From: a virus | Virus genome (UHGV): UHGV-0069511 | Direction: 5' to 3' (one strand) | DNA: 31,514 bases | Shown here: positions 1 to 29,147 of the stretch, piece after piece | How positions within the stretch are numbered: the stretch's first letter is position 1 | Layout: each line of letters begins with the position of its first letter | The notes under the pieces: model-generated | Databases searched by the model: none | Told to the model about the DNA's origin: nothing | The model's input: only the letters and a program-made list of their open reading frames with translations | Program-made: the position numbers and the translations under genes

Positions 1-49
1 TCAAAAAAAAATAACGCCCTGCCATTTCAAGTAAAAATTACTAATATTT

Positions 50-1138
50 TCAGATAGTAGTGGCGTTAATTTTCTTCAGTTTTTTTTTATTTTTTCTTGC
101 AGGAAGTTTAGGCTTATATGCATTAACAAAAAGTTGATATGAATCCTGTAATGATAATCCGGGAAGGGTATCGTTTTTGGCACTAAATATTGAATAATAC
201 TTTTCGTATCGACTTATATCTTTTTCAAACACCCATGTCCATTCAGAATCATATAGTCTTTCCCCTCCTTTTTCCTTATTTTTGTTCTCAACTGTACGAT
301 TAATTATAAATTTGAAAACGGTATTATTCAAAGTTCTAATAAAATTCTCAACAATAAATGCGATTTGCTCGAGATCATCATTATTGAGTATTATCGGTTT
401 TTCTAAGTGCTTCATATGTTCAGCCAATCCTAGTCGGATTGCATTTTTCGAACCCAACTTACCAAATCGATGAACACAACAATGCCTTAACTCGCAAACT
501 TTCATGAATTCGCTTGAGCATTTCATCATTTCGATTGGTCGTTGTCCTTTCATTCCAATAATGTCCTTTAATGTTTCAAAAACATTATAAGGGCTTGCCA
601 ATGAAAAGTCCTCAAGTAAAGCTTCTGGTAATAACTCCTTTTTATGGTGTTGTGCCGCTGCATAACTAACGGCCTTATCAGAAACTATAGACTGTATATA
701 TTCATCATGATTAATTAGATTTCTGATAAGAGCTCGCAAATAACTTTCGGCTGCAGACACATAACCTAATAACAACAGATGGCTTAATGTGTTTGAAATA
801 TCACCAGATCTTAACAAGTGAAGTTGCTTTGTATTAGCTATAAAAAGATCTAACGGGGATTCCTTGCTATCAACAGGTAACTCATTAAATTTTTTGTGTG
901 TCTCAAACGAAAAAACTAGAGCTGGATTACTACATAGTTCAAAAAACTCTCTTCCATCTAAGTTATCATGGGTTGCAGTGACAACTGAGGACGCCACATT
1001 ATGATGAGTGGTCTCTTCATAATCCTCTTTTGATTCTAGTTCCATTTTCCCGACTCTTTTTAAATTAAACTTTTCAGATAAGAAAGACACGATTGACAAG
1101 TACATGCCATCAAAATTAAGACAAAAACTCTTCAACAT
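50..1138 (-). CDS. Hypothetical protein with HEPN-like R-x4-H motif (Abi-like); third gene of the cassette
   Basis: ORF-track frame 50..1171 begins with TTG; first in-frame ATG is at 1138 (overlaps the upstream gene stop by 23 nt), alternatives at 1105 and 1045. Motif 'ELRHCCVHRFG' fits the HEPN R-x4-H signature. No other catalytic motif recognised. Lys-rich C-terminus. Confidence 0.5.
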   Translation of the reverse strand: MLKSFCLNFDGMYLSIVSFLSEKFNLKRVGKMELESKEDYEETTHHNVASSVVTATHDNLDGREFFELCSNPALVFSFETHKKFNELPVDSKESPLDLFIANTKQLHLLRSGDISNTLSHLLLLGYVSAAESYLRALIRNLINHDEYIQSIVSDKAVSYAAAQHHKKELLPEALLEDFSLASPYNVFETLKDIIGMKGQRPIEMMKCSSEFMKVCELRHCCVHRFGKLGSKNAIRLGLAEHMKHLEKPIILNNDDLEQIAFIVENFIRTLNNTVFKFIINRTVENKNKEKGGERLYDSEWTWVFEKDISRYEKYYSIFSAKNDTLPGLSLQDSYQLFVNAYKPKLPARKNKKKLKKINATTI

Positions 1139-2822
1139 GTAATAACACTTTGTCCATAATTTTATTGGCAATTTTGGGTCCTATTCTGTGAATTTTTCTT
1201 AACTCACTCCCAGGGTCTTGTAAAGACAATACATCTCCTATAGTTTTTACTTTTTCCAGCCCAGATAGTTTTTGCATTTGCCAAGATGTTAGATGTGGTA
1301 CTTTTGACAGTGGAATAGACATGCACTGATTATAGGCCGACTCATCAATCAATTGATTCCCACAATGATGGCAAAATTTTTGATTGTCAGTCAATCGCGG
1401 AGTCTTGCAGTTATTGCATGGAGGTAAAGTTAGTTTAAGTCTCGCAAGTTGCTCAGCATTGAATAATGATGAAATGTTTCTTCTGACAGGATGCTTAGCA
1501 TTCTTTCTTAGTATTTTTTGAATAATCTGAGAAGGAGAAAAACCTCTACTTCCTTCGTTAAACACTCTTTCCTTTATTAATAAAGCATAATGAGGTATAT
1601 ATCTTTCATAAGTACGCCCATCACCATGAGAAATATCAGGAAGATTATAAAAAAGCCCTGTTTCAATTAATAGCTTAGTGAGTCGAGAAAAATAAACATT
1701 ATCATTTTTCTCTATACCGATTATGACTTGTTTCTCTTCTTTATATTGGGAGTTACTTTCCTTGAGTAATTCGACTACTTTTAATAAAAGTGATTCACCT
1801 AATGAAACAATGTCAAACAATCGAGGTAGCTTATCTTTTAGTGAACTGTATTCGCTGAGTCTAAGCTCAACATACCTTTCAATTATTTTATTAAATTTTT
1901 GCTGAGTTGTCTGACTTAAAGTTGTTTGATAATCTCTTAACATCATCAAAAAAGAACGTGGAATACCAAATGCTGAGAATTTAAATAACTCTTTCAAGTC
2001 ATCCGGAATGCCATCATACCCAGGAAACCTTGCCTGCGCTATAGCATCCATCACTGAGGAATAATTAGGGTGCTGTACCGAAATCCAAGCATCAATTGTT
2101 TCAGCATCATGAGCAACATGAAACCTTGGGCCATATTCGGTTGTTCCAGGATAAACCGATGCCTTTAAAGCTATTTTTGAGGTTTTTAGACTACGTACAA
2201 TATCAAAAAACTCGTAAAGATATTCAGGAGTTAAGCTTATTGCTGCATCGTCTAATAAAATAATGACTCTTTTACGTTCAAGCCAATCACATAGTGAACT
2301 CAACGAGGATATGACAGAAGAAACACTGATCAATTGAACAATGTTTTCTTGTTCTAATGATGGCGAAAGACCCTGCTCAAGCCTTACGATTAAATTAATT
2401 AGGAACTCTTTATCCGCTATGAGTATCGTTGACAAATCAAGATATTCAGAATCTTCAATATCGCAAGCAATTTCATAAGCAGAGAGTAGTATCTTTGCTA
2501 ATACCCATTTATGAAAGAGATCAATTGCATTTGGTTTATTTTTTAAAAGCGGCTCTAACTTAAAATATTTATTAAAAGAAACATAGAGTGGTAATGGTGC
2601 GTTATCATCGTTTTTACATTCAACCCAAGCATAACGCATCAAATGTGTTTTACCACATCCCCTAGGACCAACTATAAGTTTGATGCCTGGGGATATAAGA
2701 GCATTATGTATAATATCGAAAAACTCTCCAGATCTGATAGTATTATTTTTTATCGTATCCTCATCAATATAATCAGCTCGTTCCTCGATAAGAAAATTAC
2801 TATCTAATTCCACATCAGTCAT
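1116..2822 (-). CDS. P-loop NTPase with C-terminal zinc ribbon and helix-hairpin-helix
   Basis: ATG start at 2822 overlaps the methyltransferase stop by 8 nt. Walker A 'GPRGCGKT'; Walker B-like 'VIILLDDA'; C-terminal 'CNNCK...CHHCG' zinc ribbon followed by HhH-like 'IHRIGPKIANKI'. Confidence 0.7.
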   Translation of the reverse strand: MTDVELDSNFLIEERADYIDEDTIKNNTIRSGEFFDIIHNALISPGIKLIVGPRGCGKTHLMRYAWVECKNDDNAPLPLYVSFNKYFKLEPLLKNKPNAIDLFHKWVLAKILLSAYEIACDIEDSEYLDLSTILIADKEFLINLIVRLEQGLSPSLEQENIVQLISVSSVISSLSSLCDWLERKRVIILLDDAAISLTPEYLYEFFDIVRSLKTSKIALKASVYPGTTEYGPRFHVAHDAETIDAWISVQHPNYSSVMDAIAQARFPGYDGIPDDLKELFKFSAFGIPRSFLMMLRDYQTTLSQTTQQKFNKIIERYVELRLSEYSSLKDKLPRLFDIVSLGESLLLKVVELLKESNSQYKEEKQVIIGIEKNDNVYFSRLTKLLIETGLFYNLPDISHGDGRTYERYIPHYALLIKERVFNEGSRGFSPSQIIQKILRKNAKHPVRRNISSLFNAEQLARLKLTLPPCNNCKTPRLTDNQKFCHHCGNQLIDESAYNQCMSIPLSKVPHLTSWQMQKLSGLEKVKTIGDVLSLQDPGSELRKIHRIGPKIANKIMDKVLLHVEEFLS

Positions 2823-4023
2823 GTTTAATCCTTACAAGATGTATTTTTTTTAATGCATCCATTGTAATATGTTGTGCGGCTACACCACTACTCGCTCGAG
2901 ATAATTCCTCTTGCCCATCTTGAGAACAAAGAAAATCAAATAGTTTTTTCTTATCTCCACCAGAGGCTCGTATCAGAAAAATACAGTCACTGATATAAGA
3001 ATAGCCGCTCTCAACAAACAATATTTTTTTATGAAAATTTCGCCCAACTCTTGCTATTAATATATCACCAGGCTTAGCAATGACATCTAATTTTGATGGC
3101 TTCAATTCTTCTACAGAGTTGCAGTGGAATTTAATGTACTTTTCATCACCACTAAATTTTGTCGTATGAAAAACATGTTCCGTAATTTCCTTTGAATTAA
3201 ACCTACCTCTAAAAATTGAAATGTTTTTAAGCATCCCTATTGTGCTAAACCCTTTACCTTCATTTTTATTATAATGATAAGAGTAGTCCATTCTCTCAAC
3301 CGCATCTTCTTTTCTAATTAAAACAGGAGGCGACAATTCCCCATCTTTAGTTATACAATGTAATTGTATTTTATGATGAGGCATAATTTTTTTATTAAAA
3401 ATTAAAATATGTGTTTTAGCCTCTGTCCTTTTGAAGATATTCCTAGGCAATTCAATGACTTTTGTAATTGAATGTTCATTCAATAAATATCGTCTTAAAC
3501 CTATAAACTTTCTTGCTGTAAATATACCATCAGGTAAAATTATTCCAGCCTCACCGCCCTTTTTAAGAAACCTGATGACTTGAGATATAAATATTATCTC
3601 TGCTGGGACATATTTTGAGACAGATATATATTTATCTGCGCCAATCTCACTAATGATTTTAAAATAATCATCCCTCCATTCAGGGAGAGTGAATGGAGGA
3701 TTACATACTGCAACATCAAAATTTCCTTGATGTCGGGCAAGCATTTCAGGAAATGAATGAACAAGGGCATCTGTTACAATATGAGTAAGATTATCACATA
3801 CTTTTTTTGACATCCGAGATTCTATATCCAAAGAATATGCTTCTGCATTCTTCCATCGGTCTAAAGCAGCATAGGTTAAGCTCCCCTCACCAGAAGCTAA
3901 ATCAATAATATTATTGACTTTTTCAGCTTTCATCTGAGAAACCAATAATGCACTTATGGATTCTTTTGTATAGTATCTTCCGAGACTATCTCGTTGTGTG
4001 AATGGCATATAGTTACTGTTCAT
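2815..4023 (-). CDS. N6-adenine DNA methyltransferase (gamma-class) with HsdS-like target-recognition region
   Basis: ATG start at 4023. Motif X 'GRYYT', motif I 'IIDLASGEGSL', motif IV 'NPPF'; C-terminal 'GDILIARVG' resembles the conserved motif of type I specificity-subunit recognition domains. Confidence 0.8.
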   Translation of the reverse strand: MNSNYMPFTQRDSLGRYYTKESISALLVSQMKAEKVNNIIDLASGEGSLTYAALDRWKNAEAYSLDIESRMSKKVCDNLTHIVTDALVHSFPEMLARHQGNFDVAVCNPPFTLPEWRDDYFKIISEIGADKYISVSKYVPAEIIFISQVIRFLKKGGEAGIILPDGIFTARKFIGLRRYLLNEHSITKVIELPRNIFKRTEAKTHILIFNKKIMPHHKIQLHCITKDGELSPPVLIRKEDAVERMDYSYHYNKNEGKGFSTIGMLKNISIFRGRFNSKEITEHVFHTTKFSGDEKYIKFHCNSVEELKPSKLDVIAKPGDILIARVGRNFHKKILFVESGYSYISDCIFLIRASGGDKKKLFDFLCSQDGQEELSRASSGVAAQHITMDALKKIHLVRIKHD

Positions 4024-4264
4024 TTTTTATACTCATCTTAAGTACGCTACCGCCCTAGGCGTTACGGCTACCCAAGAACCAACACAATCATGTAATCTAT
4101 TGATATTTATAAACTTATCTTCAAATCTTTCAGCCCTAGAACCTAAAAAAGATAGAAGTGTAGGTAACAAAGGGCGATCGGATATAGGGCTAATGTTTAA
4201 ACTTAAGTATCAAAATATACGGTTTTAGGTCATTTTCCTAATCAATCCTATCATCACGTCAAAT

Positions 4265-5473
4265 CTACTTTGTAGCGTTCACCAGCAAAGAAATACATGA
4301 ATTATGATTAGCGTTTATATAGTCCGCATACCACTGCATCATCTCCCTACGTCCTTCCAAATACAACGCATGGTTATACGTCCCACGAATCGCATTTTTA
4401 TCAACGTGAGCCAGCTGGGTTTCAATCCACGCTGTATTGAAACCTTCCTCATGCAAAATCGTACTCATCGTGTGACGGAAACCATGCCCCGTTACCCTCC
4501 CCGTATATCCAATCCGCTTAAAAACCTGATTAATACTCGCTTCACTCATCGTCTTGCGGGGATCATTACGTCCCGGGAACACCAGTGGATATTGCCCTGA
4601 CATCACTTTGAGTTGCTGTACGATTTCCAGCGCTTGGGTAGAGAGGGGGACAAGGTGAGGCCGTTTCATCTTCATACGCTCGGCAGGTATCTCCCACACC
4701 GCTTTTTCAAGATCAAACTCACTCCAGAAAGCACCTCGGAGTTCGCCAGTGCGAACTCCCGTGAGGATCAGCAGACGTGCCGCAAGAACAACTAACGGGC
4801 TTCCTGTGTAGCCTGCGAGAGCTTTAAAAAAGTCTGGTAACTCCTCAACAGTAAGGAAGGGATAATGCTTCGATTCATGCCCTGACATCGCGCTGGTAAG
4901 ATCCGCTGCAGGATTGTATTCCGCACGACCGGTTACGATGGCGTAACGAAAGACTTCGCTGCAACGCTGGCGAACCTTCTTGGCCTTCTCTGTCGCGCCA
5001 CGGCTTTCAATTCGACGCAGCACATTAAGCAGAACCAGCGGTTTGATTTCATTCACCGGTTGTTGGCCAATATAGGGAAAAATATCTTTATTAAAGGCTT
5101 CGATAATGTCCGAGGCATAACCTTCTGACCATCGGCTCACCTTCGTTCCATGCCATTCAAGTGCCACAGCCTGAAACGTATTATTTAGCTGCACATCTCG
5201 AACCAGCTTTTCTTCTTTCTTGGCAAGCGATGGATCGATACCTTCGGCAAGCTTTTTCTTGGCGTCGTCACGCAGTGCCCTCGCTTGTGCAAGGGACACT
5301 GCCGGATAGACACCAAAGGCCATACGCTTCTCTTTTCCATTGAAGCGATATTTCATCCGCCAGTATCTGGAACCAGAGGGAACAACCTCAAGATACAAAC
5401 CAGCACCATCTGCCAGCTTATAGGCTTTCTCTCTGGGTTTAGCTGCGTCTACCTGTCGCGCATTAAGTTTCAT
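4265..5473 (-). CDS. int: Tyrosine recombinase/integrase, P4 (IntS/IntA) family
   Basis: ORF-track start at 5512 is GTG; ATG at 5473 gives N-terminus 'MKLNARQVDAAKP...YKLADGAGLYLEV' typical of P4-family integrases, with SD-like GGGAGA upstream. C-terminal catalytic region contains 'HGFRHT' and 'LAH...Y'. Confidence 0.9.
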   Translation of the reverse strand: MKLNARQVDAAKPREKAYKLADGAGLYLEVVPSGSRYWRMKYRFNGKEKRMAFGVYPAVSLAQARALRDDAKKKLAEGIDPSLAKKEEKLVRDVQLNNTFQAVALEWHGTKVSRWSEGYASDIIEAFNKDIFPYIGQQPVNEIKPLVLLNVLRRIESRGATEKAKKVRQRCSEVFRYAIVTGRAEYNPAADLTSAMSGHESKHYPFLTVEELPDFFKALAGYTGSPLVVLAARLLILTGVRTGELRGAFWSEFDLEKAVWEIPAERMKMKRPHLVPLSTQALEIVQQLKVMSGQYPLVFPGRNDPRKTMSEASINQVFKRIGYTGRVTGHGFRHTMSTILHEEGFNTAWIETQLAHVDKNAIRGTYNHALYLEGRREMMQWYADYINANHNSCISLLVNATK

Positions 5474-5636
5474 TGGGGGCATCTCCCTAGACCGAACACA
5501 AAATGCCCCCACTTATGCCCCCAACTGCGACTTGATTTCGGTTGAGTCTAGTTGATAACAGGAGATAAGATACGGGCCAGAAACCGCAGTATACGAGCTT
5601 TTAGTTGATTTCGGTAGACTTGGGAAGAGTTTGAAA

Positions 5637-5682
5637 TGGTGCCGATAATAGGAGTCGAACCTACGACCTTCGCATTACGAAT
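5637..5682 (-). other. att core: 3' fragment of tRNA-Thr(CGU) (anticodon loop to CCA end); not a complete tRNA
   Basis: Reverse complement reads 'ATTCGTAATGCGAAGGTCGTAGGTTCGACTCCTATTATCGGCACCA', matching the 3' part of E. coli thrW as I recall it. Sequence further 5' lacks the complementary acceptor strand (GCCGATA) and D-arm, so the tRNA is truncated. Confidence 0.7.
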
Positions 5683-5843
5683 CTGTAGCACCAATCATAA
5701 CTATCTGTTTTAGCAAGCATTAACCGCATTCACTAAGCTATAGTTGATGGCACAAACAGAAAGCTGATGCATGATGTTGTCATGTGTATGTCACAAATAC
5801 GGCACAACGATCTTCAAACATGTAGCCACTCAGCATAGAAGAG

Positions 5844-5877
5844 CACAAAGCCTTGCAATCCAGTGCAAAGCTTTGTG
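5844..5877. repeat. Imperfect hairpin downstream of tailspike gene (possible end-of-late-operon terminator)
   Basis: 'CACAAAGC' (5844-5851) pairs with 'GCTTTGTG' (5870-5877), with an inner TTGCA/TGCAA pair; U-rich stretch follows on plus strand only after about 9 nt. Strand and function are uncertain. Confidence 0.3.
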
Positions 5878-5966
5878 TGTCTCAGTTTTTATAAATTCTT
5901 AAGCAAGAATTATAGTTATAACTATTATGTAAGTTTTATGATATATATTGTATTTAAATGCTGGTT

Positions 5967-8045
5967 TTACTTATTAACCCAACCTGTAGCATTTGTGTTG
6001 CTTTCCTTTATATAAAGTACTGTATTTCCACCTCCATCAGAACGAGTGTAAATAGAACCAACTGGTGCTCCAACTCCGCTAGATGTTGGGTTGCCTTCTT
6101 GCCCAAATATCACAAGTGAGCTTTTATCTGTAGCTTGATTATTCTGTGTGGCTGATGTTCCAAATGAAACATTCCCTATAAATGACACGCTCTTACAGCT
6201 TGATGTAGCAAATATACCAACTGATGGTTTATTATTTGCAACGCCATCACGAATTTGATTTGAACTAACAATTACATTTTCTGCACCAGAGTCAATTCGT
6301 ATGCCATTATGGTTATTATCTGCGGTAGAAACCCCAACTATAATGTTTGATTGAATAGTAACATTTGAATATTTACCATTAATATGAATCCCATGCAGGG
6401 AAATATTTCTAAAGATGTTGCTAGAAATTACAACATCATGCGAAAAACCAGACCCTATAAATTCTTCTGCATTAGTTTCAGAAATCCATAAAGAACTTGA
6501 TGTTCCTGAATCGTATTCATTATTAGAGATGATTGATTTGTTAATAAAATCACCTTTGAAAAAACCGATTCCGCCTCTTGCTGTGTTTCCAGTGACAGTT
6601 AGTCCTGAAACCCATCTTGCGTCTACTGCATATGATTGAGACTCTGTAATAAAAATGGAATTGTTGGATATTACGATATCTTCATGAAATGCATCTGATG
6701 TATCTGTATATGGATATGTAGGTGCAGCCAGAAGAATCGGGGATCTAACGCCTTCAAAATAATTGCCAACAATGCGCCCCCTCCTTGCCCCCTGTGGTTT
6801 TGATGATGATGGGAATGGGGTTACATGAACTCCTCGCGCGGTACTGTTATAGAAAGAGCATCCGCTAACCACCCAATCATACCAGTTGAAAACCCTTACC
6901 CCGGCAAAGAGCATTCCATCGAACCTGCAGTTTATGACCCTTATATTTTTGTCCTGATTCCCATATGAATTAGCATGGTTCCCAACCCCCACCCCCCACG
7001 CCCCAAACCCAGTGGTGGTATTTTGTGGATTTGAACCAAAATAACAGTTATCAACAAGAACATTGATGTTTGGGTAATAATCGCCAAGAGATTCAATCCC
7101 CGGATCTAACTGGATCGCTTCTGAATAATTTCGGTTGGAAAGTGGTTTGAAGCCAAGAAACTTACAGTCTCTTATAATCACCCCTTGCCCGTCAGCAATA
7201 TCTACAGCATGAAAATCGACTACATCAAGAAATGTTACTCCAACAATAGAAAGATTTCTTGGTGAGGAGGCTGCAATGATGTCAAAAGGATCTGTAGGGT
7301 GGTCTTGTCCTCCTCCATCTAGTATTCCGCCTGTTATTTTAATGTTAGTGCCAGTATTAGGGCTTATTCTCAGCATGACGTCATTAGAAAAATTACGTTT
7401 AATGGTTACGCCATCAGTCATCTTTAGGTGAGTATTTGATTTTATTTGCAACTCAGAAAGCAAAGTATATATGCCTGGTAGTGAAAACTGTAGTGTACCT
7501 CCTCCAATGCTATATATTGCATCTAGCGCAAATTGCAGAGCTACTTTATTGTCAGCATTCGATGGATGAGCACCGAAGTCAAGAACATCAATGATTTGTT
7601 GGTTCTTTTGGTGTTGAGTTTGATTTGCTGCTCCGGGGAATGGTTGTTTCACCGACACTAATTCATCCCCATCACCATCATCAAAGGATGCCAACCTCTT
7701 CTGAAACTGATCAGGGTCATACTTCAGCACATTAGGAAAATAAAACTGCTGCGCACCATACGCATCATAAACCGCCATAGAATGGCCTTGCACAGTTACG
7801 AACTTGGCAATCTGTCCGTTATATACAGGGTAACCAGCAGCGTTAATGATGATTGGTTGAGAAACAGGAACGTGAGAACCATCTTCGTTCTCAACATAGA
7901 CCTGAATCTGGTTTTCAGGATTTACCGGGTCAGTGTCAATTTTACCGATATAAATTTTGCCATTGGCTACGGCTTTAAAAGAACGAGCCATAGTGAAGAG
8001 TTGCGAAGGCATACTCACTACAACATTGGCTGTAATGTCTGTCAT
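5967..8045 (-). CDS. Tailspike protein (P22 gp9-like N-terminal head-binding domain, divergent beta-helix receptor-binding domain)
   Basis: N-terminus '[43 protein letters not shown]...VLKYDPDQF' is the conserved P22/Sf6 tailspike head-binding domain; remainder is Gly/Asn/Ser-rich with beta-helix-like repeats. Confidence 0.9.
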
Positions 8046-8100
8046 TTAATTTGCTCCAGATACAATGAATCGCCGCAGCGTGGCCACGGTGAATTTTGGG

Positions 8101-8128
8101 CATAAAAAAACCCAGCCGAAGCTGGGTC
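8101..8128 (-). terminator. Rho-independent terminator between ant and tailspike
   Basis: Minus-strand transcript 'ACCCAGC-UUCG-GCUGGGU' followed by UUUUUUUAUG (plus-strand A-run 8104-8110, stem 8111-8126). Confidence 0.65.
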
Positions 8129-8145
8129 GTTGCGTTGGTTATCTG

Positions 8146-9069
8146 TCAGTAGTTATGTACTGAAGGAGGTAATTCTTTGTTCTTAAGTCTTATCCATGCT
8201 GAAAGGTTTGTTGGTCCGTCTGGCTCATTAATATCAACATCTCGTGTATGGTTGATTAAAACATCTCTCGCCATATCGATAATACGGGAGAACTCATAAC
8301 CGCAGTCATGACATCTGCCGGAATAGTTCGATTGAATTTGTTTTAGCGCCGGATACAATTCGCGGAATAATGCCTGTGAGCGGTTGGCATAATCCCATAG
8401 CCATACAAGGCTGTTTGCTTCTTTTGCAGAAAGCTCGTTGGTTTTCTTCTCTTGTTTGCCAATGAACTCACCTTCAAGCGGAACTCGAGCTGCAAGTGAC
8501 AGTGCTTCGGTAAACTGCTCCTCACTGATTTCTTTGTATGAACATCCAAAATGGGATTTCAGTGACGACCACATGGTGATCATCGCCTTAGCCTGTTTTT
8601 CCTTTGGCAGAGACTGACCGCGACTCATGACGAGTTGTTTAATGGCTTCCTGCTGTTCAGTGGTGATTTTACCCGGCAACGCCTTTTTAGCTTTGCGTGG
8701 GTTAACTACATGACCTTTAGTCCAGTACTCGTATAGCACATCGTCACACTCTTCCTGATACTGGATTACCTTGTCGCGGATTTCAGGACGGACTTTGTTT
8801 GGCTGAATGCTTGAAAGCCAAGCCGCAAACTTACGAAAGGCAAGGCATATCATTAACTGTTTACCGCCAGCAGAAGGTATTTCGATTTCCGAAATACCTT
8901 TGACAAATCTCTGTTTTAATTTAACAAATTGAGCAGCCCAAACCATACCCATGCCTTCTACAACGGGTTTCATAGGAACGTAAGGTTCATTGTTAATGCT
9001 GACCAAAAAGAGATTTGTTCCGTGGAATGGAACGTTGATTGTATGTTCTGCAATTGCTACACTCGTCAT
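8146..9069 (-). CDS. ant: Antirepressor Ant
   Basis: 307 aa, position downstream of arc in immI; N-terminus resembles phage antirepressor family proteins. Confidence 0.8.
   Translation of the reverse strand: MTSVAIAEHTINVPFHGTNLFLVSINNEPYVPMKPVVEGMGMVWAAQFVKLKQRFVKGISEIEIPSAGGKQLMICLAFRKFAAWLSSIQPNKVRPEIRDKVIQYQEECDDVLYEYWTKGHVVNPRKAKKALPGKITTEQQEAIKQLVMSRGQSLPKEKQAKAMITMWSSLKSHFGCSYKEISEEQFTEALSLAARVPLEGEFIGKQEKKTNELSAKEANSLVWLWDYANRSQALFRELYPALKQIQSNYSGRCHDCGYEFSRIIDMARDVLINHTRDVDINEPDGPTNLSAWIRLKNKELPPSVHNY
9035..9063 (+). promoter_or_regulatory. Candidate Psar promoter inside the 5' end of ant
   Basis: -35 'TTGATT' (9035-9040), 17-nt spacer, -10 'TACACT' (9058-9063) on the plus strand, antisense to ant. 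Confidence 0.4.
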
Positions 9070-9143
9070 GTCGTTAATTCCTATGCGTGGTTTTACGATA
9101 CCGAAGCCCTGACTGTTACCGCAGTTGGGGCTTCACTGTTTTT
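9068..9143 (+). ncRNA. sar: sar-like antisense RNA covering the ant translation start
   Basis: Predicted start just downstream of the -10 element; plus-strand hairpin GAAGCCC(9103-9109)/GGGCTTC(9128-9134) followed by 'CTGTTTTTG'. Length of about 75 nt is in line with the 68-69 nt P22 sar RNA. Ends are approximate. Confidence 0.4.
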
Positions 9144-9354
9144 GTAAGTCACTGTAGTTATAAAACCACTGACCACTCATTCTTGCTTTGATTGACTCTA
9201 CTGAATCACGGCAAGGAATGATTCCACCTGACATCATTCTGATCTCCGTAAATTCACCGCTCCTTACCGACTCAATGCCATTAACGTTAACTAAAGATTT
9301 ACCTCTACCAAGTGCATTCTCATAGCCAATCTCATCAACCTCAATAAACCTCAT
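9133..9354 (-). CDS. Hypothetical 73-aa protein inserted between arc and ant
   Basis: ATG at 9354 overlaps the arc stop as ATGA; SD-like GAGG upstream. No recognisable motif. P22 has no gene here as far as I recall. Confidence 0.4.
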   Translation of the reverse strand: MRFIEVDEIGYENALGRGKSLVNVNGIESVRSGEFTEIRMMSGGIIPCRDSVESIKARMSGQWFYNYSDLQKQ

Positions 9355-20132: not shown

Positions 20133-21404
20133 TTACGGATTACCGAAGAACTGACCGCCCATGTGAGGGTTAAAGCACACATATGCAGGCAGTAAGTCAA
20201 AGCGCATTTTTTGCACGTTGGCATCGCCATCTGCGTATTTATGTACGCGGATGGAGAAACCTTCATATGTTGCAACAGCAGAATCAATACTGTGCAGTTT
20301 CGGCAGTGGGATAGAGCCAAGTCCACAGAAGAACTTGTTATAGAACAGGTTTGGCTTCATTGTCTGGCTAGCAGTGCCTACTACAGATACGGCATCGCCT
20401 GCCGCTACCTGACGACTTACAGAGTTGTACTGCGGGTTTGTAGTGTCATAAATCGGAACACCAGAAAGCGTAACCGTCACATCGCCACTGCTGTCTGAAT
20501 TAGCATCAGCAGTAACCGTTGCAGTGAAGCTAATTGGTGTGGCTCCGTTATACAACGCCTGTTTGGTCTGCTGTTGCAGCCAGTAGGTATTGGTGAATTT
20601 AACCTGATCACCAGCTTTCAGAAAACCTGTAACGCTGGCTGTCGCTCCGGTCAATGTTACAGTGAACTGGTATGAGTCTTTAACTGCGTTATAGGTAACA
20701 GTTGGCTGTGTTTTGACTGTCAGTGTTCCGCCAAATGCCCCCTGCGTACGAGAGGCAAGCCCATTAGACATCAGTGCGCGAATGCCGCCAAAATTGGTTG
20801 GGATCTGTGCATTCTCCCATGCAGTACGAACCAATTGATCTGAAGCGTGCAAACCAGTCTGCGCATCAGCAAGTCGCTGTGCAGACCATGGATCCATTAC
20901 AGCATAGTTTTCACCTTCATTAACGCCGAGGTCTTTCAGGAAAGATGCCGTCTGCGCAACATCAGACCATTTGGTGATTGGAGTATTGGGGCTACCAAGT
21001 GACAACGCACCGTTATTCATCATGAAGTGAGCAAGCTCTGTTTCAAGGTCGGTAACGATTCGCTGGCGAACCGGCGCGAGAATTTCCTCCAGTTGGTTAA
21101 GCTTGATCGCTTCCTCCAGTTGCTGATATTCAACAGCAACAGTGATGTAGTTACCTACACGCCCCGTAGCTTTACCTGATATCAGGTTGTTTTTATTTTT
21201 CCCTGAAATATCACCAGTGGGAGTACGGAGGGATGAGAATTGATGCGGACGTTTAAAGCTAACGCTATCGCCAGTGCTGGAGTTGATTTCACCTGCCAGC
21301 AACTGACGGTCTACGGTTTTCGCCAGAACTAAATCTGACATAAAACACGGAAGGAATTTTTTCAGAACGATTTGACTGACGTTACTATCGAGATTGTTAG
21401 GCAT
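20133..21404 (-). CDS. Major capsid (coat) protein, Sf6-type
   Basis: 423 aa beginning 'MPNNLDSNVSQIVLKKFLP...'; near-identical over its length to the Sf6 coat protein as recalled. Confidence 0.95.
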   Translation of the reverse strand: MPNNLDSNVSQIVLKKFLPCFMSDLVLAKTVDRQLLAGEINSSTGDSVSFKRPHQFSSLRTPTGDISGKNKNNLISGKATGRVGNYITVAVEYQQLEEAIKLNQLEEILAPVRQRIVTDLETELAHFMMNNGALSLGSPNTPITKWSDVAQTASFLKDLGVNEGENYAVMDPWSAQRLADAQTGLHASDQLVRTAWENAQIPTNFGGIRALMSNGLASRTQGAFGGTLTVKTQPTVTYNAVKDSYQFTVTLTGATASVTGFLKAGDQVKFTNTYWLQQQTKQALYNGATPISFTATVTADANSDSSGDVTVTLSGVPIYDTTNPQYNSVSRQVAAGDAVSVVGTASQTMKPNLFYNKFFCGLGSIPLPKLHSIDSAVATYEGFSIRVHKYADGDANVQKMRFDLLPAYVCFNPHMGGQFFGNP

Positions 21405-21415
21405 TTATCTTTTCC

Positions 21416-22300
21416 TTATTCGATTTTTGCGCCGGGGCATAATTTGTTGAATTCGTCTTGTTTCGCATCAGCACCGCCACCACGTACTTCCGGCTCTGGC
21501 TTGATGGCTTTCTTTGGTTTTGGAGCAAGGCTTACCTGTTTGCTAATCTGCCCCAAGAGGAATGCTGCGCGAATTGGATCTGTCTCAGCGGCTACACGCT
21601 GGCGTAATTGCTGGCTCTTACCTAAGCCATAGGCGAGTAGTTCAGAGCCTTCGTCTGCACAGTGAATGATGATTTCCTGCTGAATTGGTGGTAGCTCACT
21701 AAGAACAATGGCTTCCATTTCCTGATAATCTTTCACAGGAAGTTTGGCTGCCCGTTGTTTATGCGCTTCTACCCTTTGCTGGAAACGCTGCTGGTATTCC
21801 TGTTGCTGACGTAGTTTTTGTTGCTGCTGCTGTTCGACACGGCCTTTTTTCTCATGCCAATCAGTCAATGCCTGTTCAAACGCCTGTTCGTCATAATCAC
21901 ACGACTCAAGAGTCGGTTTTGGTGGAATAGCGTCTGGTTGTGGTTGCTGATGTTCCGCAGGCTTGGCTAATGCTTCCTCAAGCTGGCGTCGCAACTCACG
22001 GTTTTCTTTCTGTGTTTCTTTGAAGCCTTTGCGAAGATCTTTCACCCATTGCGGTGCAGGTTGCCCGTCAATGTGATCATCATCGTCAGCGTTAAGCTGA
22101 ATTTCTTCATCACCAATACGCAAGGCGTAATCTTCTGGTGTCTCTTCGGTTTTTTCAGGATCAGTTGCCATCTCTTTTCCGTTGTCATCCTGGCTTTCAT
22201 TCTCAGGCTGTGACTCTGTTTGGATGATGGTTTCTTCTGCATTTTCCTGTGTTTCAGACAGGTCAATAACCTGACCGTCGATGATCAGTTCGTTTTCCAT
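21416..22300 (-). CDS. Scaffolding protein
   Basis: 294 aa, acidic and Gln/Glu-rich, located between portal and coat. Confidence 0.85.
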   Translation of the reverse strand: MENELIIDGQVIDLSETQENAEETIIQTESQPENESQDDNGKEMATDPEKTEETPEDYALRIGDEEIQLNADDDDHIDGQPAPQWVKDLRKGFKETQKENRELRRQLEEALAKPAEHQQPQPDAIPPKPTLESCDYDEQAFEQALTDWHEKKGRVEQQQQQKLRQQQEYQQRFQQRVEAHKQRAAKLPVKDYQEMEAIVLSELPPIQQEIIIHCADEGSELLAYGLGKSQQLRQRVAAETDPIRAAFLLGQISKQVSLAPKPKKAIKPEPEVRGGGADAKQDEFNKLCPGAKIE

Positions 22301-24442: not shown

Positions 24443-25855
24443 TTACCAACCGGAGGATGAGGGAACGTATATTTCTGTTTCTTCGCGGACCAATGCCGGG
24501 CAATGCATACACATCATCAGCGCATCAGCCAGGTTAGGAGATGGAATACCGAGCTTCTGCTTCATTTCGACCTTAGTCATAAGCTCCAGCTTCCCGTTAT
24601 TATTGAATTTGCGCTGAATCTGCGTCAGTTCTGCAAACAGCTTCTCCAGCATCTTCTCGCCTATCGCTTCTTTGTCGAAACTCAGCATGTCGTCTGGGTC
24701 TGCATACTCACCGTGAACAACCGCCCGATATGTCAGATACAGCCTGTCAGCCAGCGCGTAATAGAATTGTGCTCGCTTATTGCGGAACACATCGCCAATA
24801 GTGCGAACGTTGTCACCCTGTACGACTTCATCAGCCCATGCTCCGGCCTGATACGGCGCATCTTCATCGAATGGCGATTCACTGCCCTTGAACATCGTGG
24901 CGGTGATTTTCTTGCCGGAGAACGCTTCCGTTGTCTGTCTGCGTAGCCCCGCACCGACGCCATCACCATCCCACAGGTAATGGTCAGCGCCGTCTTCAAT
25001 CGCCAGCGAAGTTGCCCAGTCAGCACCTTCATTGATGTCCATCAGCAGGCCTTCGGCAATGCGCTTAACTACCGAACCGTGGCGCGATGCATAACCTTTA
25101 GCATCCGGTCCTGTATCTGACGGGTCATGCGCAGAGACAACAGCGCCTTTCGCCTTCCATCCGAGTTTCTTGTGCGCATCGGTTGCGGCTTCAAGCCATT
25201 CACGTTTGATGATTGCCATATCACTTGCGCTCACTGGCTCACCAAGCCAGATGTGACGATACAGTGTCGGATTTCTGCGTTTACACTCTTCCATCTCCAG
25301 ACGGAGAACTTCAGGAAAGTGCGGGTTGTCGGTGTAGTTCACCGTCAGCAGACAAATATCATCAGGAGGGTTTACTACGAATCGCTGATAGGTATCGTCG
25401 AGGATGTTCTTCGGGTTAAAGCTCACCCATATTTCAGAGAACGGCTTACGGATGGTTGGGATCAGGATATCCCACGATTCCTTTGTTACCGCTTCCGCTT
25501 CTTCCACCCAGCAGATATCAATGCCTTCGAGCGATTTAATCTTCGTCGGGTTGTTTTTTATGCCGTAGAACATGAATTCAGCATTCGTTCCGAGATGACG
25601 AATCATTGAACGCTGAATTTCAAACTCAGCCGAATATCCTTCACGCTCGATGGTGTCTTCAAGCAGCCGGATTACCGAATCGCTGATACTGTTTTGCAGT
25701 TCACGAGCACAGAGGATGCGCACAGGCTGCCGACGCGCCGCTTCAACAAGCAGCCTCGCAATTGCCCATGACTTACCGCTACCTCGACCGCCTTTGGCGA
25801 CTTTGTAGCGATGCGCCTCAATGAACGGTTCAAAGATAGGATTAATCGAGGTCAT
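24443..25855 (-). CDS. Terminase large subunit
   Basis: 470 aa; Walker A 'KGGRGSGKSWA'; start overlaps small-subunit stop. Confidence 0.9.
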   Translation of the reverse strand: MTSINPIFEPFIEAHRYKVAKGGRGSGKSWAIARLLVEAARRQPVRILCARELQNSISDSVIRLLEDTIEREGYSAEFEIQRSMIRHLGTNAEFMFYGIKNNPTKIKSLEGIDICWVEEAEAVTKESWDILIPTIRKPFSEIWVSFNPKNILDDTYQRFVVNPPDDICLLTVNYTDNPHFPEVLRLEMEECKRRNPTLYRHIWLGEPVSASDMAIIKREWLEAATDAHKKLGWKAKGAVVSAHDPSDTGPDAKGYASRHGSVVKRIAEGLLMDINEGADWATSLAIEDGADHYLWDGDGVGAGLRRQTTEAFSGKKITATMFKGSESPFDEDAPYQAGAWADEVVQGDNVRTIGDVFRNKRAQFYYALADRLYLTYRAVVHGEYADPDDMLSFDKEAIGEKMLEKLFAELTQIQRKFNNNGKLELMTKVEMKQKLGIPSPNLADALMMCMHCPALVREETEIYVPSSSGW

Positions 25856-26292
25856 TTTCCGAACAGAGTGCTCATCGGTGATGTTTCAATCTGGATTGCG
25901 CCGCCGTCTTTGCCTGTTAGCTCGTGATCAACCTTGTCGCGCCATTTATCCTTCTGTCGGTTCTTAAGCCAGAAAATGGCAGCGGTTGTATCAGGCGGGT
26001 AATACTTCTCAAGCGGAGTTTCGACAATTCTGTTTTCAATAACACGAATATCGATATCTGGAGCCACGAAGCCCATAGCGCGTTGATAAAGACGATCACT
26101 AACTTCTGCATCAGCGACGGCCTTACCCTTTTTTATGGACTCCGAAAACTTAGGATAATCAAGCTTCCACTTGTTAATAGTTGACTCACTGACTTCAAAG
26201 AAATCAGCAAGCTCTGCATCGGTGTAGCCCAGCAAGCACAGTTTGCGTGCCTGTTCGGCGTACGCCTCTTGATACTTTGTTGGGCGCGCCAT
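25852..26292 (-). CDS. Terminase small subunit
   Basis: 146 aa with N-terminal HTH-like region; C-terminus 'GKDGGAIQIETSPMSTLFGK' as in Sf6-type small terminase (recalled). Confidence 0.8.
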   Translation of the reverse strand: MARPTKYQEAYAEQARKLCLLGYTDAELADFFEVSESTINKWKLDYPKFSESIKKGKAVADAEVSDRLYQRAMGFVAPDIDIRVIENRIVETPLEKYYPPDTTAAIFWLKNRQKDKWRDKVDHELTGKDGGAIQIETSPMSTLFGK

Positions 26293-27469: not shown

Positions 27470-27521
27470 TCTGCGAGGCATTTTCCTGAAAGTCACTTGT
27501 TAAATTTCAGTGAAGTTAAAA

Positions 27522-27980
27522 TTATTTTAAGCACTGAGTCCTGGTGTACTCCTGCAGGTAGTTAACCTGCGCGGTTATCCTGTCGATTCCACTTCGGAGA
27601 CGGTAATAATTGAGTTCAGCATCTGCTGTAAGTCCTGGGCTTTCTCCATCGCCCATGCCGCTGGCTCCGGTCGTTGACTTTGCACAGGTGGCGGCGACTT
27701 GCAGGCGCTTACGACCAGCAGAAACATCAGCACGGAGACTTTCGATAGTCGCGTTAGCATCAGCAAGCTCCTTTGTGTATCTTGCGTCGAGTTCTGCTAC
27801 ATCACGTTGACGCTTCCGCATGTCAGCGATGGTGGCGTTCGCCTTCTCCAGTTCACTGGCCTTGTTATCGCGCTGCTCTTTGTAGGCGATTGCGTTATCA
27901 CGGTAATGATTAACAGCCCATGACAGGCAGACAATGATGCAGATAACCAGAGCGGAGATAATCGCGGTTAACCGACTCAT
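27522..27980 (-). CDS. Rz: Rz i-spanin
   Basis: From ATG at 27980: N-terminal transmembrane segment '[20 protein letters not shown]' then coiled-coil region; '[11 protein letters not shown]' as in lambda Rz. Confidence 0.8.
27575..27760 (-). CDS. Rz1: Rz1 o-spanin (lipoprotein), embedded in Rz in the +1 frame
   Basis: From ATG at 27760: signal peptide with lipobox 'VSAC', then Pro-rich '[13 protein letters not shown]'. Confidence 0.75.
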
Positions 27981-28991: not shown

Positions 28992-29067
28992 TGGTGCTGG
29001 TTAACGGACTTGAACCGCTACCCATTCGCTTACAAGGCGACTGCTCTACCATTGGAGCTAAACCAGC
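28992..29067 (-). tRNA. tRNA-Thr (anticodon UGU)
   Basis: Manual fold of the reverse complement: 7-bp acceptor stem GCTGGTT/AACCAGC, D-arm GCTC/GAGC, anticodon loop CTTGTAA, T-loop TTCAAGT, encoded CCA end. Confidence 0.6.
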
Positions 29068-29072
29068 ATATT

Positions 29073-29147
29073 TGGCGGGACAGCGTGGACTCGAACCACG
29101 ATAAGAAGGTTAACAGCCTTCCGTAATGACCTTTATACGACTGACCC
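29073..29147 (-). tRNA. tRNA-Asn (anticodon GUU), slightly aberrant
   Basis: Manual fold: perfect anticodon stem GAAGG/CCTTC with loop CTGTTAA, T-arm CGTGG-TTCGAGT-CCACG, CCA end; one acceptor-stem mismatch and a 3-bp D-stem. Confidence 0.45.

Follow-up and report, generated by a model that had tools for sequence, protein, structure and literature searches.

thrW as a shared integration site

The tRNA gene thrW ranks with the most frequently used tDNA sites (PMC7545054). The phages SfI and SfX integrate there in tandem (PMC3306764), and the BREX island of Escherichia coli HS, which has a P4-family integrase, also sits at thrW (PMC9009780). Both the tandem occupation of thrW and the HS island have already been published, and the locus is ordinary in this respect. 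A survey of E. coli defence islands mentions neither thrW, proA and tRNA-Thr nor a P4-like integrase or a tandem arrangement (PMC10121019). The sequence considered here is a stretch of 31,514 nucleotides from the virus genome UHGV-0069511, hereafter called the window. At positions 5637-5682, it very probably contains the tailspike-end junction of a P22-like prophage that lies in thrW next to a pre-existing island with a P4-type integrase.

In the SfI/SfX tandem lysogens of Shigella flexneri, as in the window, two att-bounded elements share thrW downstream of proA, and the element that arrives second inserts at the tRNA-proximal site of the first one. However, both of those elements are serotype-converting phages with related integrases, whereas one element of the window is a P4-integrase island with a shorter core, and its phage has no gtr or oac genes at the tailspike end.

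Phage P22 (NC_002371) shares with the window the 46-nt thrW identity and the P22-type virion gene set; both would also have the order gene 9 ... attP ... int, in which int reads toward attP. In contrast, the attP arms are unrelated in sequence, and in P22 the gtrABC genes separate gene 9 from attP. The Int of the analogous prophages of strains HS and MB53 is of the HK542 type and shares only 54.7% identity with P22 Int; HS encodes a phage Int with 100% identity to that of HK542, and the annotation of MB53 lists the same protein as in HS (WP_223696218.1).

The island resembles the satellite phage P4 not only in the sequence of its Int: int is transcribed away from a core from which it is separated by about 150-165 nt, the 3' end of a tRNA gene forms the core, and GGGGGCAT arm repeats in 12-nt tandem spacing lie on both sides of the core, one of them overlapping the int start. 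It differs from P4 in its target, which is thrW; P4's own target is leuX. The cryptic prophage CP4-6 of strain K-12 (thrW ... intF - ptwF) also occupies thrW and is bounded by the same 46-nt repeat, in exact copies. Its far repeat is followed by a remnant of an SfX-type int 3' end, and the same remnant flanks the empty site. CP4-6 with IntF was rejected as the same island: IntF is 22% identical to the island integrase over 147 aa and is located at the far end, on the other side of the repeat.

The HS thrW locus (NC_009800) has the same element order as the window, namely proBA - thrW - P22-like prophage - thrW fragment - P4-type int - methyltransferase cassette - IS1 - BREX-1, and its att module is likewise of the HK542/SfX type. 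Window positions 4-5878 are 99.83% identical to HS; they take in the cassette and the integrase, then the 46-nt fragment, and ~200 nt at the start of the phage arm. Beyond 5878, similarity occurs in patches only. HS has a different P22-like mosaic with another tailspike and two IS3 insertions; its att site and tailspike are separated by three small genes and a remnant of an integrase.

The features of the window are as follows, with the evidence for each in brackets.

50-1171, minus strand: cargo gene 3, a protein without assigned function, start codon uncertain (ORF list)
1116-2822, minus strand: cargo gene 2, ORC/Cdc6-like AAA ATPase (Pfam ORC-CDC6-like, E 1.2e-9)
2815-4023, minus strand: cargo gene 1, N6-adenine DNA methyltransferase (Pfam N6_Mtase, E 1.7e-22)
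4265-5473, minus strand: P4-family tyrosine integrase of the island, 402 aa (Pfam domain set, P4 Int homology)
5475-5482, 5503-5510 and 5515-5522, no strand: three P4-type arm repeats GGGGGCAT (island att site)
5637-5653, minus strand: 17 nt of the thrW 3' end matching the island's own att repeat (distal repeat in M217 and L022)
5637-5682, minus strand: 46-nt 3' thrW fragment, the phage att core (exact, unique)
5683-5889, plus strand: phage-side arm of an HK542/SfX-type attP (attP homology and flank alignment)
5844-5877, plus strand: 14-bp hairpin and T-run (inverted repeat)
5967-8045, minus strand: tailspike of the P22-like prophage (Pfam Head_binding, E 1.5e-67; Beta_helix)
8146-31514, minus strand: remaining P22-like prophage in the window (Pfam matches, gene calls)

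The thrW fragment and the prophage side of the junction

The 46 nt of the fragment match the 3' end of the 76-nt thrW gene, tRNA-Thr(CGU), as annotated in E. coli M217, HS and K-12, exactly; they cover thrW positions 31-76, including the anticodon CGU. The fragment occurs once in the window, and none of 100 shuffles matched even with three mismatches. The match is thus real, and the first-pass annotation, which was made from the letters alone and had described a 46-nt 3' part of this tRNA gene, was correct on this point. Identity to thrW ends precisely at 5682, where thrW continues with GCGCTGC and the window with CTGTAGC. ARAGORN reported no tRNA at 5637-5682, as expected because the thrW copy is truncated. 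The identical 46 nt are found in the attP sites of P22 and HK542 and in the thrW genes of all comparator genomes. This tRNA piece is to be annotated as a prophage att junction and not as a tRNA pseudogene of obscure origin.

On the right side of the junction, the annotated attP regions of HK542, HK75, mEp213 and HK446 share 94-96% identity with window positions 5631-5889, and the SfX attP is 93.9% identical to the phage arm of the window. The hairpin in this arm has a fold energy of -24.9 kcal/mol (z = -2.7). Positions 5811-5879 are 85.5% identical to lambda 27473-27536, which is ~190-250 nt from the att core of lambda, on the flank opposite to int. We take the hairpin to be the likely counterpart of the lambda int terminator/retroregulator tI/sib; possibly it also terminates the late operon.

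The spacer between the fragment and the tailspike (5683-5966) measures 284 nt and contains no ORF longer than 50 aa; therefore, no gtr or oac gene lies there. The earlier claims that a P22-like tailspike follows the fragment and that serotype-conversion genes are missing between tailspike and att both hold. The region beyond the tailspike comprises ant/arc/mnt, a moron block, the genes for ejection proteins, needle, gp10, coat, scaffold and portal, the terminase, the lysis genes, two tRNAs, Q and nin genes. Its Pfam matches include P22_portal (E 7e-179), P22_CoatProtein (1.6e-141), Phage_stabilise (4.8e-296) and Phage_tail_NK (5.6e-108), together with Terminase_3, Antiterm and Phage_lysozyme; P22_gp7, Inj_translocase and Phage_P22_gp16 are among the gene calls. 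By these matches and the head-binding domain of its tailspike, the prophage has the P22-type virion module of a Lederbergvirus-type temperate phage.

The integrase and attachment system of the island

The integrase ORF extends over 4265-5512 on the minus strand. Its likely start is the ATG at 5473, which gives 402 aa, as in the RefSeq model. The protein combines the Pfam domains Arm-DNA-bind_3 (E 3.8e-29), Phage_int_M (4.8e-34) and Phage_integrase (7.3e-23) and shares 44% identity with P4 Int along its entire length (BLASTP; 416 columns, E 1.7e-123). P22 Int, in comparison, matches at just 24% over 120 aa (E 0.06), and the resemblance to P22 and HK542 Int is confined to the catalytic domain. 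In an alignment with P4 Int and the MB53 allele, R241, H330, R333, H356 and Y366 are invariant and thus candidate catalytic residues; by motif position, they presumably represent the catalytic R, HxxR, H and Y. The start codon is 163 nt from the thrW fragment, and transcription runs away from the fragment into the island cargo. These data agree with the first-pass annotation, which had assigned the integrase to the P4 family, not to P22-like Int, and had noted its direction away from the fragment. At the DNA level, the integrase gene is 100% identical in many E. coli chromosomes.

The three GGGGGCAT repeats correspond in consensus and 12-nt tandem spacing to the annotated arm repeats of the P4 attP. 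Two further copies are found at the distal island end in M217 (L017 7225-7244). The distal junction of the M217 island, ~61 kb from thrW, contains the 16/17-nt repeat TGGTGC-GATAATAGGA (L017 7148-7163), and a second strain (L022) has it as well. The repeat that had been proposed at the left end of the island is thus present in M217; the bounding repeat is known from these two comparators, not from the window's own genome. Two island variants that differ in their distal cargo have the 1-nt-deleted form of the distal repeat in common. The far end of the HS island shows no second 46-nt copy and no exact core stretch of 13 nt or more, and runs into an IS3 and a truncated fimbrial gene; in HS, an IS3-associated deletion has removed the distal end of the island. 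An empty thrW locus, which had also been suggested for comparison, is seen in LY180. By sequence comparison, the island has an att system of its own, as shown by the P4-type Int with its conserved candidate residues, the arm repeats, the distal repeat and the empty site of LY180.

That the integrase might instead be part of the prophage, the window then showing a single element or a free phage genome read tailspike - attP - int, finds some backing in the circular P22-type genome, where the tailspike side and int do flank attP. However, the 3' end of the HK542 or P22 int converges on the core, whereas the P4-type int of the window diverges from it, and the similarity of its product to these integrases does not go beyond the catalytic domain. 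Moreover, the left flank is 100% identical to island DNA that stands beside an intact thrW without any phage, and related thrW prophages bear a P22-family int of their own at the other end. That the integrase and the phage genes all belong to one element is virtually ruled out, as island and phage each occur separately. The P4-type integrase should accordingly be annotated as part of the island (methyltransferase cassette, then BREX) and not of the prophage.

Independence of the two elements

Among 5,426 complete E. coli genomes, 526 have an unbroken stretch that contains the island-int flank together with an intact thrW and proA. The combination of P4-type int, core and HK542-type arm is found in 13 genomes. 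HS and MB53 share the order proBA, intact thrW, phage int, P22-like prophage, tailspike, 46-nt fragment and P4-type int. The MB53 prophage lies between two direct copies of the 46 nt that are 40.1 kb from each other, and its int is next to the intact thrW and proA. In both strains, a P22-family integrase and an excisionase are found at the end opposite to the tailspike, converging on the intact thrW. The expected intact thrW at the far prophage end is therefore present in HS and MB53, and the statement that int and tailspike occupy opposite prophage ends is true of P22, HS and MB53. From these two strains, it is also predicted that the present prophage ends at its far side in an intact thrW and a phage int.

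In other strains, the thrW fragment next to this island leads into a lambda-like or yet another prophage, and no fewer than four types of prophage share this position beside the island. The phage, in turn, recurs at 99.99% identity over window positions 5635-18045 beside a different flank in assembly L008. A 98.5% identical tailspike region is located at dacD in ST131, where the att module is therefore swapped. The ST131 prophage was rejected as the same element with regard to the att module, given the dacD site and homology that starts only at window position 5842. Taken together, these comparisons show that island and phage are independent elements.

No complete E. coli genome has exactly this phage beside this island. 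The sole assembly identical to the window is the metagenome scaffold ENA ERZ28573074 scaffold_390 (100% over window positions 1-18045), which ends ~400 nt past the right end of the window. This identity involves a scaffold that crosses a 46-nt exact repeat, through which phage and island contigs of different strains might have been joined by the assembler. Two short-read assemblies with the same tailspike do break at or near the repeat: L010 stops two bases beyond the core, and L009 ends ~314 nt beyond the tailspike. The same phage has another flank in the L008 sample. Against such an artefact, which seems very improbable, stands the correct orientation and register of the join for an attP x attB product. 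Similar junctions are, moreover, found in the finished isolate genomes of HS, HCP8S3_I1, MB53 and about eight more; therefore, the join is biologically normal.

Integration history

A four-way comparison of flanks relates the junction to its putative parents. The window reads island flank, core, phage arm. M217 reads island flank, intact thrW, proA side. The HK542 attP reads int 3' end, core and the same phage arm as in the window, and the far prophage end in HS reads int 3' end, intact thrW. Seen against these flanks, the junction corresponds exactly to the product that recombination of an HK542/SfX-type attP with an island-bearing thrW should give.

The proposed course of events begins with the island, which would be driven by its own P4-family integrase and would use only the last ~17 nt of thrW together with the GGGGGCAT arm sites. 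The DNA downstream of thrW would already have been held by this island before a phage came whose attP was of the HK542/SfX type, with a 46-nt core identical to the thrW 3' end. Recombination inside the core would have rebuilt a complete thrW at the int end and left the 46-nt 3' copy at the tailspike end. The phage integrase, predicted to be of the P22 Int family, would be located beyond the right end of the window, beside the intact thrW and proA. Because the island was already downstream of thrW, the fragment would now abut the island integrase. Each element would keep a complete site pair of its own because the fragment retains the island's whole short core. In principle, island and phage could therefore each excise independently, and we infer that they may be competent to do so at present.

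The same structure would result if the P22-like phage had entered thrW first and the 46-nt fragment at its tailspike end had afterwards served as the target of the island. The fragment contains the entire 17-nt island core, and this history would yield exactly what is seen, so the geometry cannot separate the two orders. The frequencies speak against it: the island joined to an intact thrW is ~40 times commoner (526 vs 13 genomes), and this arrangement is 100% identical across many strains. With at least four prophage types at this position, the reverse order would also need repeated insertion of the island into a fragment and not into the intact gene. In addition, the 1-nt deletion of the distal repeat in two island variants suggests one old island insertion, and the near identity of the phage in two contexts points to its recent arrival. 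The arrival of the phage before the island is accordingly quite improbable. Of the first-pass claim that an island settled at thrW and was followed by a P22-like phage, the stack itself stands; the order, unprovable from a structure that is the same either way, is favoured by the population data.

With the island placed before the phage, thrW would be a clean textbook case of a tRNA site occupied in layers: first an old remnant of an SfX-type int, next the island with its 17-nt core and last the phage with its 46-nt core.

Island cargo and its possible transfer

The product of cargo gene 1 matches the PADLOC model MTase_II PDLC03285 (E 8e-237), and the RefSeq product names for that of cargo gene 2 include zinc-ribbon protein. 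Cargo gene 3 had no match in Pfam, NCBIfam or the PDB sequences and only a marginal one in PADLOC (RTasHEPN, E 0.0056); it is conserved beside the same integrase in M217, HS, BE311 and WCHEC005237. For the two cargo proteins other than the methyltransferase, PADLOC, NCBIfam, Pfam and the PDB sequences offered no usable name. The one paper that pairs ORC-Cdc6 proteins with anti-phage methyltransferases deals with BREX components and not with the cassette of this island. P4 genes for replication or helper exploitation (alpha, sid, delta, psu) were seen neither in the window nor in the islands of HS and M217. On the matching scaffold, the methyltransferase-ATPase-unknown cassette is followed downstream by IS1 and a type 1 BREX system.

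Beyond correct annotation, the junction matters little. If the prophage is active, the direction of packaging would probably turn the neighbouring defence island into a passenger, which is a generic idea. In P22, pac is located in the small-terminase gene, and packaging proceeds one way toward the 3' end of this gene in headfuls of ~44 kb (PMC8575938). The candidate small-terminase gene of the window (25852-26292, minus strand), assigned by position only, is oriented toward the island, with the late genes and the tailspike in between. A role of the prophage in carrying the neighbouring defence island by lateral transduction is nevertheless a tentative and rather doubtful proposal, which requires an inducible prophage with late excision. 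The distance from the junction to the brxL end is 20.7 kb in HS. If the proposal is true, the first in-situ headful would consist of ~20 kb of phage DNA and ~23 kb of island, and one headful could hold the integrase, the methyltransferase cassette and the whole BREX-1 operon.

The thrW junction

The core, the 46-nt 3' end of thrW, lies between the integrase of a P4-type island and the tailspike gene of a P22-like prophage.

Features on both sides of the junction
50-4023, minus strand: cargo cassette, three genes adjoining the island integrase
5473 (ATG) to 4265, minus strand: island integrase with Arm-DNA-bind_3, Phage_int_M and Phage_integrase domains
5637-5682, minus strand: thrW 3' fragment of 46 nt, exact copy, the single occurrence in the window
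5844-5877, plus strand: 14-bp hairpin followed by a T-run, within the phage att arm
Right of a 284-nt spacer: tailspike of 692 aa with a P22 head-binding domain

According to the annotation of E. coli M217, HS, MB53 and K-12, the fragment represents positions 31-76 of the 76-nt thrW gene, tRNA-Thr(CGU), and includes the anticodon. Identity to thrW stops precisely at 5682, where thrW reads GCGCTGC and the window CTGTAGC. Shuffled sequences gave zero matches to the core, even with 3 mismatches allowed, and ARAGORN called no tRNA at 5637-5682. The first-pass annotation, which had recognised the 3' 46 nt of tRNA-Thr(CGU) here with an integrase on the left and a tailspike on the right, was correct in all details.

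Window positions 1-18045 are 100% identical to the ENA metagenome scaffold ERZ28573074 scaffold_390. This scaffold spans the 46-nt exact repeat, and two short-read assemblies that contain this tailspike end at the repeat or near it (one two bases past the core, the other about 314 nt past the tailspike). A mis-join in metagenome assembly is very improbable, and the arrangement as such is real in isolates.

For all copies of the core in the loci compared, the flanking sequences were aligned.

Flanks of the 46-nt core
Window: left, island DNA ...GGGAAGAGTTTGAAA; right, CTGTAGCACCAATCATAAC...
M217: left, identical island DNA; right, 5' part of thrW, then proA
HK542 attP (free phage): left, 3' end of the phage int; right, window-type CTGTAGCACC... 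arm
HS, far end of the thrW prophage: left, 3' end of the phage int; right, 5' part of thrW

By this comparison, the window junction corresponds exactly to one of the two products of recombination between an HK542-type attP and an island-bearing thrW; the reciprocal product of such a cross is present in HS. The stretch 5631-5889 is 94-96% identical to the annotated thrW-type attP of HK542, HK75, mEp213, mEp043, HK446 and mEpX2, and 93.9% identical to SfX. The attP of P22 shares the 46-nt core, but its arms are unrelated. The 284 nt between fragment and tailspike contain no ORF of more than 50 aa; they match the HK542-type arm and are thus not empty, being the phage arm of attP.

The P4-type island

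The island integrase had been described as unlike that of P22. It aligns with P4 Int over the full length (44% identity, E 1.7e-123), whereas the Int proteins of P22 and HK542 match only part of the catalytic domain (24-27% identity), in agreement with that description. Its candidate catalytic residues are conserved. In M217, the island covers about 61 kb, starting at thrW and ending at a CbtA/YeeU toxin-antitoxin pair with a yagP remnant next to it. The further direct repeat sought at the island's left end was found in this comparator, with TGGTGC-GATAATAGGA, a 16/17-nt copy of the thrW 3' end, at the distal junction. A second island-bearing strain (L022) with other distal cargo harbours the identical copy with the identical 1-nt deletion. 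Three copies of the motif GGGGGCAT lie between core and int: one, at 5475-5482, overlaps the start of int, and the other two form a 12-nt tandem at 5503-5522. Two further copies, again as a 12-nt tandem, lie at the M217 distal end. The annotated attP arm repeats of phage P4 share their consensus, spacing and placement. Judged by its sequence, the island appears to carry its own P4-type att system. Its entire short core falls inside the 46-nt fragment, so that island and phage would each keep their own pair of sites.

Of the three proteins encoded by the cassette at 50-4023, one is an N6-adenine methyltransferase and another an ORC/Cdc6-like AAA ATPase, which RefSeq lists as a zinc-ribbon protein. 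PADLOC named only the methyltransferase, and searches of NCBIfam, Pfam and PDB sequences assigned nothing to the other two. The genes are kept in the same position in HS, M217, BE311 and WCHEC005237 and may constitute an uncharacterised restriction-modification-like defence cassette.

The P22-like prophage and its relatives

The remainder of the window corresponds to the late genes of a P22-type phage (portal, coat, gp10, ejection proteins, large terminase, lysozyme and Q) with an Sf6-type needle knob. E. coli HS shows the complete series. After proB, proA and an intact thrW comes the phage int, which converges on thrW, and then an excisionase-like gene, early genes, repressor, replication genes, nin genes, Q, lysis, terminase, portal, coat and tailspike. 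Past the tailspike follow the 46-nt fragment, P4-type int, methyltransferase, ATPase, an unknown gene, IS1, and BREX-1 from brxA to brxL. On its island side, HS has 99.83% identity to window 4-5878. E. coli MB53 has the same order of elements and a prophage nearer to that of the window (98.4% identity from coat through terminase); its two copies of the core are direct repeats 40.1 kb apart. The HS phage integrase matches HK542 Int at 100% identity and P22 Int at 54.7%; the same integrase protein (WP_223696218.1) is annotated in MB53.

The order in P22 is gene 9, gtrCBA, attP, then int converging on attP, which places int and tailspike at opposite prophage ends, as had been claimed. The intact thrW to be expected at the far end is present in HS and MB53. 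The matching scaffold ends, by its coordinates, about 400 nt past the right end of the window; we therefore infer the far end of this prophage from its analogues.

The sole tRNA genes found by ARAGORN in the window are a phage-borne tRNA-Thr(TGT) and tRNA-Asn(GTT) pair (28992-29147, minus strand) between the Q antiterminator and lysis genes. The pair is also annotated in phages Kapi1, mEp506, vB_EcoP-720R6 and SPN9CC, and is absent from P22 and from the thrW prophages of HS and MB53. At 9904-11712 (plus strand), in the place of sieA in P22 and MB53, a block of three genes separates mnt/arc from the gp16 ejection gene. It encodes an unknown protein of 239 aa, a PIN/VapC-like protein of 182 aa and an unknown protein of 140-161 aa. 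This block, also present in an ST131 prophage at dacD, may be a toxin-antitoxin or exclusion module.

Independence and order of arrival

The island and the phage are two independent elements. The island-int flank, intact thrW and proA form one contiguous stretch in 526 of 5,426 complete E. coli genomes, and P4-type int, core and HK542-type arm are joined in 13 (3 of them versions of HS). The same island adjoins the thrW fragment and then a lambda-like prophage in WCHEC005237, or a prophage with baseplate genes in BE311. Conversely, the window's phage (5635 to 18045) is 99.99% identical in another assembly (L008) with a wholly different left flank. The ST131 prophage has a tailspike region of 98.5% identity; its homology begins only at window 5842 and its site is dacD, which implies an exchanged att module.

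In L008 (ERZ21878735 NODE_30, a 120-kb contig), a different element that carries a resolvase and numerous small ORFs lacking annotation (12410-22079) stands past the same phage and core, in place of the P4-integrase island. In WCHEC005237 (L015 14949-16389), a CBASS-like pair of SMODS nucleotidyltransferase and SLATT-domain genes occupies the att-proximal end of the lambda-like prophage that shares this thrW position and the neighbouring island.

The empty locus, seen in LY180, consists of a yagP remnant, a 3' end remnant of an SfX/HK542-type int, intact thrW and proA. The int remnant of about 70 nt (LY180 L021 ~4020-4088, immediately downstream of thrW) is also found on the outer side of the resident island's distal repeat, both in M217 (L017 ~7080-7147) and in K-12, there just beyond ptwF (L006 39256-39330). 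It looks like what is left of an old thrW prophage common to LY180, M217, L022 and K-12. The locus thus records at least three events: an old SfX-type prophage of which a remnant survives, then the P4-type island, and lastly the P22-like phage now present.

The first-pass annotation had the island integrate first. This order is the more parsimonious, but the structure does not force it: if the phage had come first and the island had then inserted at the 17-nt core within the fragment at the tailspike end, the product would be identical. That reverse history is nevertheless quite unlikely, and arrival of the island first is favoured, because of the 526 to 13 genome ratio, the variety of prophages that take up this position next to the same island, and the near identity of the window's phage in two different contexts.

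Precedents and possible mobilisation

Tandem integration at thrW has been shown experimentally for SfI and SfX (PMC3306764), thrW is among the most used tDNA sites (PMC7545054), and the HS BREX island has been described at thrW with a P4-family integrase (PMC9009780). The HS reference genome already contains the arrangement of the window; stacked elements at thrW are a correct but already known and ordinary finding.

Packaging in P22-type phages starts at the small-terminase gene and proceeds in a single direction, each headful measuring about 44 kb (PMC8575938). The candidate small-terminase gene (25852-26292, minus strand) is oriented towards the island, and no part of the HS BREX operon is farther than 20.7 kb from the junction. 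By analogy, and speculatively, the first headful packaged in situ could carry the integrase, the cassette and an HS-style whole BREX operon by lateral transduction.

The hairpin in the att arm

Around the strong arm hairpin, 69 nt (5811-5879) match lambda 27473-27536 at 85.5% identity. In lambda, this stretch lies about 190-250 nt past the core, on the side opposite int, and is the location of the int terminator/retroregulator (tI/sib), of which the arm hairpin is probably the counterpart. In the prophage state, it is split off from int.
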